64,000 nt of DNA from Escherichia coli (GTDB taxonomy: Bacteria; Pseudomonadota; Gammaproteobacteria; Enterobacterales; Enterobacteriaceae): assembly GCF_046105845.1 (NCBI RefSeq), contig NZ_CP151004.1. One strand, written 5' to 3'. Under the pieces are notes generated by a model. That model saw only the letters and a program-made list of their open reading frames with translations. It was not told the origin of the DNA and made no database searches. This document shows, in pieces, positions 15,545 to 15,578 of this stretch; the stretch's first letter is position 1, and the number at the start of each line of letters is the position of its first letter. The position numbers and the translations under genes were made by a program.

Positions 15545-15578
15545 TTCGACCAGTCAGCATATTTACTGACTGGTCGAA
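15545..15578 (-). terminator. Hairpin 3' of elaD: perfect 13-bp inverted repeat TTCGACCAGTCAG / CTGACTGGTCGAA with 8-nt loop
   Basis: Read directly; sits 17 bp downstream of the elaD stop. Confidence 0.5.

Follow-up and report, generated by a model that had tools for sequence, protein, structure and literature searches.

The window analyzed here, a stretch of 64,000 nucleotides from Escherichia coli, carries in order nuoN, yfbM, yfbL, a remnant of yfbK, a perfect inverted repeat, elaD and rbn (both on the minus strand), elaA, and elaB. elaD occupies positions 15595-16818 on the minus strand and encodes the deubiquitinase ElaD. We identified this gene as an open reading frame (ORF) of 407 aa that aligned with elaD as annotated in strains N96 and K-12, and whose product shares 96-97% identity with proteins named deubiquitinase ElaD. 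Among the proteins listed in a homology search, the best identity was 98% (97% over the full length), and the matches listed include Escherichia sp. TW15838 and HH091_1A. The 120 proteins listed were solely near-identical E. coli ElaD proteins and offered no distant contexts; a species-wide scan for ElaD relatives across genome contigs likewise yielded nothing confirmable. For the 4.4 kb around the locus (13600-18000), the closest complete E. coli genome was 98.3% identical to the window, and none in the collection was identical. Given these identities and the names among the protein matches, the DNA may derive from an atypical Escherichia or Shigella lineage.

The gene on the other side of the repeat, yfbK, was overlooked by an earlier note on this DNA, although its stop codon lies comparably near the repeat. 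In K-12 (NC_000913.3), an intact yfbK is convergent with elaD, and the repeat sits in the 70-bp spacer between the two stop codons, 20 nt from that of yfbK and 16 nt from that of elaD as measured by the K-12 annotation and alignment. In the window, alignment to K-12 revealed that two internal deletions (junctions 15464/15465 and 15485/15486) have reduced yfbK to a remnant. Its pieces are a diverged 5′ end of about 130 bp (to 15464), 21 bp from inside the gene (15465-15485), and the terminal 39 bp (15486-15524, plus strand), which include the stop codon at 15522-15524. In window 15100-15524, identity to K-12 is about 75% for the 5′ part of yfbK and for the yfbL-yfbK spacer, compared with about 94% for the flanking genes, which suggests, at the level of sequence, that the yfbK region in the window is a deeply diverged allele. 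Thus, K-12-type strains have one hairpin between two convergent stop codons that is usable on both strands; in the window, which retains only a remnant of yfbK, any two-directional role of the hairpin is vestigial, and elaD alone is intact.

Two smaller features accompany the stop codons. Partial arm motifs of the repeat, TGACTGG and CAGTCAG, recur in the final yfbK codons (15506-15522), where they pair into a small 6-bp hairpin over the yfbK stop codon; our terminator scan called this hairpin (15507-15522, tail GATGACTTTT). On the elaD side, fold prediction placed an AU-rich mini-hairpin, UUAACA-AUGA-UGUUAA, with 6-8 pairs over the elaD stop codon on both strands (15583-15598); this predicted structure is probably incidental.

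The repeat itself spans positions 15545-15578 and reads TTCGACCAGTCAG-CATATTTA-CTGACTGGTCGAA. Direct reading, a pattern search and a repeat listing all delimited the left arm at 15545-15557 and the right arm at 15566-15578, with 13 of 13 bases complementary; the intervening 8-nt loop (15558-15565), whose last base is polymorphic, was defined by alignments and folds. These results bear out the description in the earlier note of a perfect 13-bp inverted repeat immediately 3′ of elaD, the elaD stop codon (15597-15595) being 16 nt away. A scan of the 64-kb window detected no other perfect inverted repeat of at least 13 bp with a 3-10 nt loop. In 60 first-order Markov simulations of the window, perfect repeats of 13 bp did not occur at all, and those of 12 bp occurred with a mean of 0.03; the perfect 13-bp repeat is therefore real and beyond chance expectation. 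The next-best hairpin-type repeats in the window are those at 18823-18853 (12 bp, 92%, 7-nt loop), which falls outside the ORFs listed around elaD, and at 42589-42618 (11 bp perfect, 8-nt loop).

We next considered how widely the repeat occurs. Within the window, a search allowing up to 3 mismatches recovered only the locus itself. The repeat is present in about 4200 (4199) of 5426 complete E. coli genomes, always at one locus, and second copies within these genomes were not found save for rare duplications of the locus. The genome search for further copies that the earlier note had called for thus showed the repeat to be unique. The hairpin is confined to elaD-bearing E. coli and is absent whenever the 3′ end of elaD is absent. 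A collection of phages contained no match to the 50-bp region around the repeat. Six records in a plasmid collection did match this region and look like chromosomal sequence; four of them, 1.4-4.9 Mb long, are probably chromosomes filed as plasmids. With no extra copies in the window, the 5426 E. coli genomes, the phages or the plasmid collection, we rejected the identity of the repeat as a member of a repeat family or mobile element. It resembles REP/BIME elements in being an intergenic palindrome, and REP/BIME elements often lie between convergent genes and act on 3′ ends. Unlike them, however, the elaD repeat is single-copy, has no REP resemblance by eye, and coincides with no repeat annotation in NC_000913.3, so that the earlier judgment of the repeat as not REP-like was borne out.

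On the RNA level, the repeat is predicted to fold into a stable hairpin in its sequence context, with free energies of -25.8 kcal/mol (z -6.4) on the plus strand and -30.1 kcal/mol (z -7.4) on the minus strand. This main hairpin was dominant on both strands and was retained in folds of 125-141 nt. In the window, the stem comprises 13-14 bp, and 7 of its 13 pairs are G-C. Encoded in the 3′ untranslated spacer common to the convergent elaD (minus strand) and yfbK (plus strand), a perfect palindrome of this kind would give the same 13-16 bp hairpin in transcripts of either direction, and in the elaD transcript the hairpin would fall within the 3′ UTR. A search for promoter-like sites near the repeat found none. 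The best score against Rfam 15 was 22.9 bits, compared with a gathering threshold of 90, and the matches were eukaryotic snoRNA and miRNA noise.

Like a canonical intrinsic terminator, the locus has a stem-loop of suitable stability that is fairly G+C-rich and lies just past the stop codon. Unlike one, it lacks a 7-8 nt U-tract directly 3′ of the stem on both strands, most clearly in the elaD direction, and a consensus terminator scan did not call the repeat. The tail on the plus strand, in the yfbK direction, is UUAAUUAA (longer version UUAAUUAACAAUG), with 4 of 8 positions U and a tail score of 2.23; the tail on the minus strand, in the elaD direction, is CAUAGUUU (longer version CAUAGUUUGCUAAAA), also with 4 of 8 U and a tail score of 0.64. 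By the same yardstick, canonical terminators score about 5.1. Having no U-tract on either strand, the hairpin fails the canonical test for an intrinsic terminator and by itself would not be expected to terminate transcription efficiently. The suggestion that the repeat is the elaD terminator consequently holds as to its kind, a hairpin at a transcript 3′ end, but not in the sense of a self-sufficient intrinsic terminator.

Published data bear on the role of Rho at this gene end. Using bicyclomycin, Adams et al. mapped a Rho termination region at MG1655 2383800 (+), with a Rho score of 3.63 and P = 5.8e-8 (Adams et al., 2021; PMC7815308, supplementary file 2). The region was classed as internal to elaD and lies 124 nt before the elaD stop codon (PMC7815308). 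In MG1655, elaD extends from 2382713 to 2383924, and the repeat begins about 16 nt past its end, so the peak of the Rho region falls within elaD and not past the hairpin. The Rho score is computed from 800-nt windows, which span the hairpin; it reports Rho-dependent readthrough across the end of elaD and does not place the exact site. Inhibition of Rho led to 3.6-fold more readthrough at the elaD end (PMC7815308). Even in the presence of bicyclomycin, coverage still falls across this end, with 122 downstream versus 264 upstream reads (PMC7815308).

In the elaD direction, the RNA directly past the hairpin is rut-like in composition. Its first 60 nt (window 15485-15544, minus strand) are C-rich and G-poor, the C/G ratio being 2.25 for the window and 2.0 for K-12; further on, the composition is mixed. 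In the yfbK direction, the first 60 nt showed no enrichment of C over G. Dar and Sorek have shown that Rho-dependent transcripts end at stable stem-loops without a U-rich tail, that rut sites in which C exceeds G lie just downstream, and that PNPase and RNase II trim the RNA back to the stem; a 3′ stem-loop at this position is a feature of nearly all E. coli genes (Dar and Sorek, 2018; PMC6061677). The elaD hairpin shares with these 3′ stem-loops a stable stem past the coding region, the lack of a U-rich tract, and C-over-G RNA downstream; the Rho-dependent readthrough reported at the gene end is linked to the hairpin only indirectly, given its 800-nt resolution. The stem of the elaD hairpin, perfect over 13-16 bp, falls toward the upper end of the lengths usual for such stem-loops and is common to two convergent genes.

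Taken together, we consider it probable (about 0.62) that the repeat is a U-poor 3′ stem-loop that defines and protects the ends of transcripts terminated largely by Rho. According to this model, RNA polymerase would mostly pass through or pause at the hairpin, and Rho would terminate transcription slightly downstream on the C-rich, G-poor untranslated RNA. The 3′-to-5′ exonucleases PNPase and RNase II would then remove the tail as far as the stem base. In this way, the stem would both set and protect the 3′ end of elaD mRNA at steady state, and likewise that of yfbK mRNA where this gene exists. That the hairpin is the actual 3′ end, produced by Rho and trimming, is what we infer from the fold, the tails, the downstream composition and the published readthrough. 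In strains with both genes, the hairpin may in addition fix the meeting point of converging polymerases; in a model of RNA polymerase collision, a stem-loop suffices to position the collision (Wang et al., 2022; bioRxiv 10.1101/2022.10.23.513370). Most likely, then, the elaD repeat is an unannotated, ordinary 3′-end hairpin of the convergent elaD and yfbK genes, carried in the elaD islet described below. It would mark where the elaD transcript probably ends, as well as the yfbK transcript of K-12-type strains, and would add one more case to the U-poor stem-loops that end Rho-dependent transcripts; it would not be a new type of element.

One difference from the stem-loops described by Dar and Sorek is that mapped 3′ ends are missing at the elaD hairpin. 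The Term-seq tables of Adams et al. (PMC7815308), searched by name, sequence and coordinate for three conditions, list no 3′ end for elaD, yfbK or the hairpin, and the TRS dataset lists none for elaD. We suspect that low expression accounts for this absence, which is an assumption on our part. Adams et al. also list a Rho region antisense to elaD, at MG1655 2382764 (-), with a score of 3.6, which lies at the elaD 5′ end (approximately window position 16770; PMC7815308). This region implies that minus-strand transcription in MG1655 crosses elaD, so the hairpin may not stop transcripts running in the yfbK direction. Readthrough in the yfbK direction beyond the repeat could give rise to these antisense transcripts, as could an internal antisense promoter.

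The same features bear on the possibility that the hairpin is a self-sufficient, factor-independent bidirectional intrinsic terminator for elaD and yfbK, with a long stable stem that offsets the weak U-tract. The placement 16-20 nt after two convergent stop codons is classic for such a terminator, and the stem is very stable. Furthermore, the plus-strand tail starts with UU, has U at 4 of 8 positions and, with its score of 2.23, is close to that of the neighboring rbn terminator (2.15), at which a primary 3′ end has been mapped. The fall in coverage past elaD that persists under bicyclomycin (122/264 downstream/upstream reads) also agrees with termination independent of Rho. Against this, the U-tract is missing, above all in the elaD direction (CAUAGUUU, 0.64), no A-tract/U-tract symmetry is present, and readthrough increased 3.6-fold when Rho was inhibited. 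The elaD locus is similar to the bidirectional terminators between convergent genes (Ju et al., 2019, as cited elsewhere) in that one palindromic hairpin within a 70-bp convergent spacer folds on both strands; it departs from the typical intrinsic examples in having no flanking A-tract and U-tract, and in the window one of the partner genes is deleted. Intrinsic termination by the hairpin acting alone is therefore unlikely in our assessment.

To determine how strongly the stem is conserved, we aligned nine genomes, consisting of the window, N96, K-12, and six genomes evenly sampled from the 4199 carriers, including the weakest match listed, and we recovered 80 metagenome contigs through their flanks alone. 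Both arms were invariant in all nine genomes and intact in 78 of the 80 metagenome copies, the other two carrying singleton uncompensated changes, one of which is in the left arm. Variation in both sets was concentrated in the loop and the flanks. The last base of the loop is A in the window and in 169 genomes like it; it is G in K-12, in seven of the nine aligned genomes and in 76 of the 80 metagenome copies. The G variant extends the stem to about 16 pairs and cuts the loop to 4 nt. Neither the nine genomes nor the 80 metagenome contigs contained compensatory stem changes. Because of this, and because the flanks are also only mildly variable, conservation does not inform the structure; as far as the alignments go, conservation of the arms is suggestive and statistically not strong.

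These observations are relevant to a second alternative, in which the repeat is functionally neutral: local template switching or quasi-palindrome correction in AT-rich acquired DNA would have generated the palindrome, which would persist only because the islet is young and little diverged. The absence of covariation and the low diversity of the flanks are in keeping with such an origin, as is the lack of a 3′ end at the hairpin in the Term-seq tables of Adams et al. and in the TRS tables, and the CAGTCAG and TGACTGG motifs upstream in the yfbK 3′ end (15506-15521) could have been a substrate for template switching. However, a perfect 13-bp repeat is unexpected by chance, this one is placed precisely where nearly all E. 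coli genes have a 3′ stem-loop, and its arms do not differ among nine genomes and are intact in 78 of 80 metagenome copies, in contrast to the polymorphic loop and neighboring intergenic bases. Moreover, a transcribed hairpin of -26 to -30 kcal/mol blocks 3′ exonucleases regardless of how it originated. We accordingly regard a purely neutral palindrome as improbable. Pairing of the CAGTCAG and TGACTGG motifs at the yfbK 3′ end with the main arms was also considered, and was rejected because the main hairpin dominates all longer folds.

We also searched for the core of the stem elsewhere, using the pattern GACCAGTCAG-N4-12-CTGACTGGTC in one genome for each of 100,044 species. No elaD-type copy was found outside E. 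coli in these 100,044 genomes. The scan did recover a hairpin in the convergent spacer of ychH and dauA, TGACCAGTCAG-TTTGCG-CTGACTGGTCA, whose 10-11 bp stem core is identical to that of the elaD repeat (L068:8976-9001, L014:7761-7786, L033:12045-12070 and L048:2688-2713). The ychH/dauA hairpin is present in essentially all E. coli, as well as in E. albertii and E. whittamii. Both hairpins occupy a convergent spacer, share the stem core and have a poor U-tract; the ychH/dauA hairpin differs in its loop and has a shorter stem. For ychH/dauA, published data place a Term-seq 3′ end at MG1655 1259119 (+), approximately 6 nt beyond the stem; a Rho region follows at 1259355 (+), approximately 240 nt from that 3′ end. 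By analogy, we propose that the elaD hairpin, following the Rho-associated model favored above, may behave like the ychH/dauA hairpin.

The occurrence of the core GACCAGTCAG/CTGACTGGTC in two unrelated spacers is itself a probable coincidence. The flanks of the two hairpins have nothing collinear in common, sharing one 8-mer that is not collinear. By a rough estimate, the within-genome probability of a coincident 10-bp stem is about 0.002-0.01, a figure that applies to a match found post hoc. We consider it very unlikely that the shared core reflects common descent, by a terminator cassette copied with or onto the elaD islet, or recognition by an RNA- or DNA-binding factor.

The stem-core scan additionally picked up a palindrome in several phyla, (A)GACCAGTCAGGTTT-N3-5-AAACCTGACTGGTC(T), with 14-bp arms that are nearly invariant, a variable loop center and unrelated flanks (loci L013, L017-L023, L027, L034, L035, L040, L043, L051, L052, L059-L062, L065-L067 and L070-L081). 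Chloroflexota MAGs each carry numerous copies, with at least 11 loci in MAG-182 and 7 in MAG-54. Single copies are found in the Bacteroidota isolates Flavivirga, Algibacter, Galbibacter, Algoriphagus and Maribacter, and also in Balneolales/Rhodohalobacter and Crenothrix. This 31-bp palindrome matched no Rfam family at the seven loci scanned, and what it has in common with the E. coli repeat is the 10-mer search pattern only.

Finally, we examined the structural boundaries of the locus by comparison with other strains. Relative to elaD-less B2-type E. coli, the elaD islet extends over 15498-17002 and takes in the final ~27 bp of yfbK, followed by the repeat and by elaD with its upstream region; the G+C content of the islet is low, at 33-38%. 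The edges of the islet are at 15497/15498 and 17002/17003, which, together with the two yfbK junctions and a deletion of 15270-16707 in Ec15103, make up the structural breakpoints at the locus. The Ec15103 deletion, which shows 7 bp of microhomology at its junction (L004:2164-2170), took out the repeat together with the yfbK remnant and most of elaD, leaving a 111-bp elaD 5′ fragment that is annotated as a pseudogene. The repeat lies in the interior of this deletion and not at its ends. None of the four structural breakpoints touches the repeat: the nearest, the left islet edge, is 47 bp away, and the nearer yfbK-deletion junction is 60 bp away. The other islet edge carries no copy of the repeat. 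These findings contradict the proposal that the repeat is a recombination junction marking the edge of the islet. The comparison of islet boundaries across strains, which had been set beforehand as a test, instead found a unique repeat that is absent from the boundaries, an outcome that essentially leaves it with a simple terminator role.

A role as a protein-recognition site, the other possibility raised earlier, fared no better. A TGGTC/GACCA half-site typical of FadR-type GntR operators is present in each arm, and genomic SELEX has reportedly placed an LldR peak within yfbK (PMC10272880). In the best single alignment, the repeat agreed with the LldR box AAnTGGTCnGACCAnTT at 10 of 14 positions, essentially one half-site. 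The half-sites in the repeat are arranged as GACCA, 18 nt, TGGTC, which is the reversed order and the wrong spacing with respect to the LldR box TGGTC-N-GACCA, and the SELEX peak lies inside yfbK rather than in the spacer and is given in a different coordinate system; on these grounds of order, spacing and peak position we rejected an LldR/FadR-type GntR operator. Although a long perfect palindrome 47 bp from an islet edge invites such readings, a DNA-level site, whether one that binds a dimeric protein or a junction left by recombination or integration, is highly improbable, given that no breakpoint touches the repeat, that the other edge lacks a copy, that second copies are limited to rare locus duplications in ~4200 genomes and are absent from phages, and that no promoter-like site is nearby.

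The hairpin is part of the elaD islet, an AT-rich segment acquired horizontally, and moves with it. Its practical use lies in mapping the limits of the islet (window 15498-17002) and in engineering elaD expression, with little beyond annotation. In strains that lack elaD but keep yfbK (L003 and L005), the sequence diverges from K-12 27 bp before the yfbK stop codon and rejoins it 3 bp before the rbn stop codon, so that these strains differ in about the final 9 codons of yfbK and in roughly the final codon of rbn. In place of the 1.5-kb islet they have 144 bp (L003:3960-4103) that carry a REP-like hairpin, CTGTTTGCC...GGCAAACAG, with a predicted free energy of -20.4 kcal/mol. As this hairpin occupies the equivalent convergent spacer between yfbK and rbn, a hairpin is retained there under either allele.
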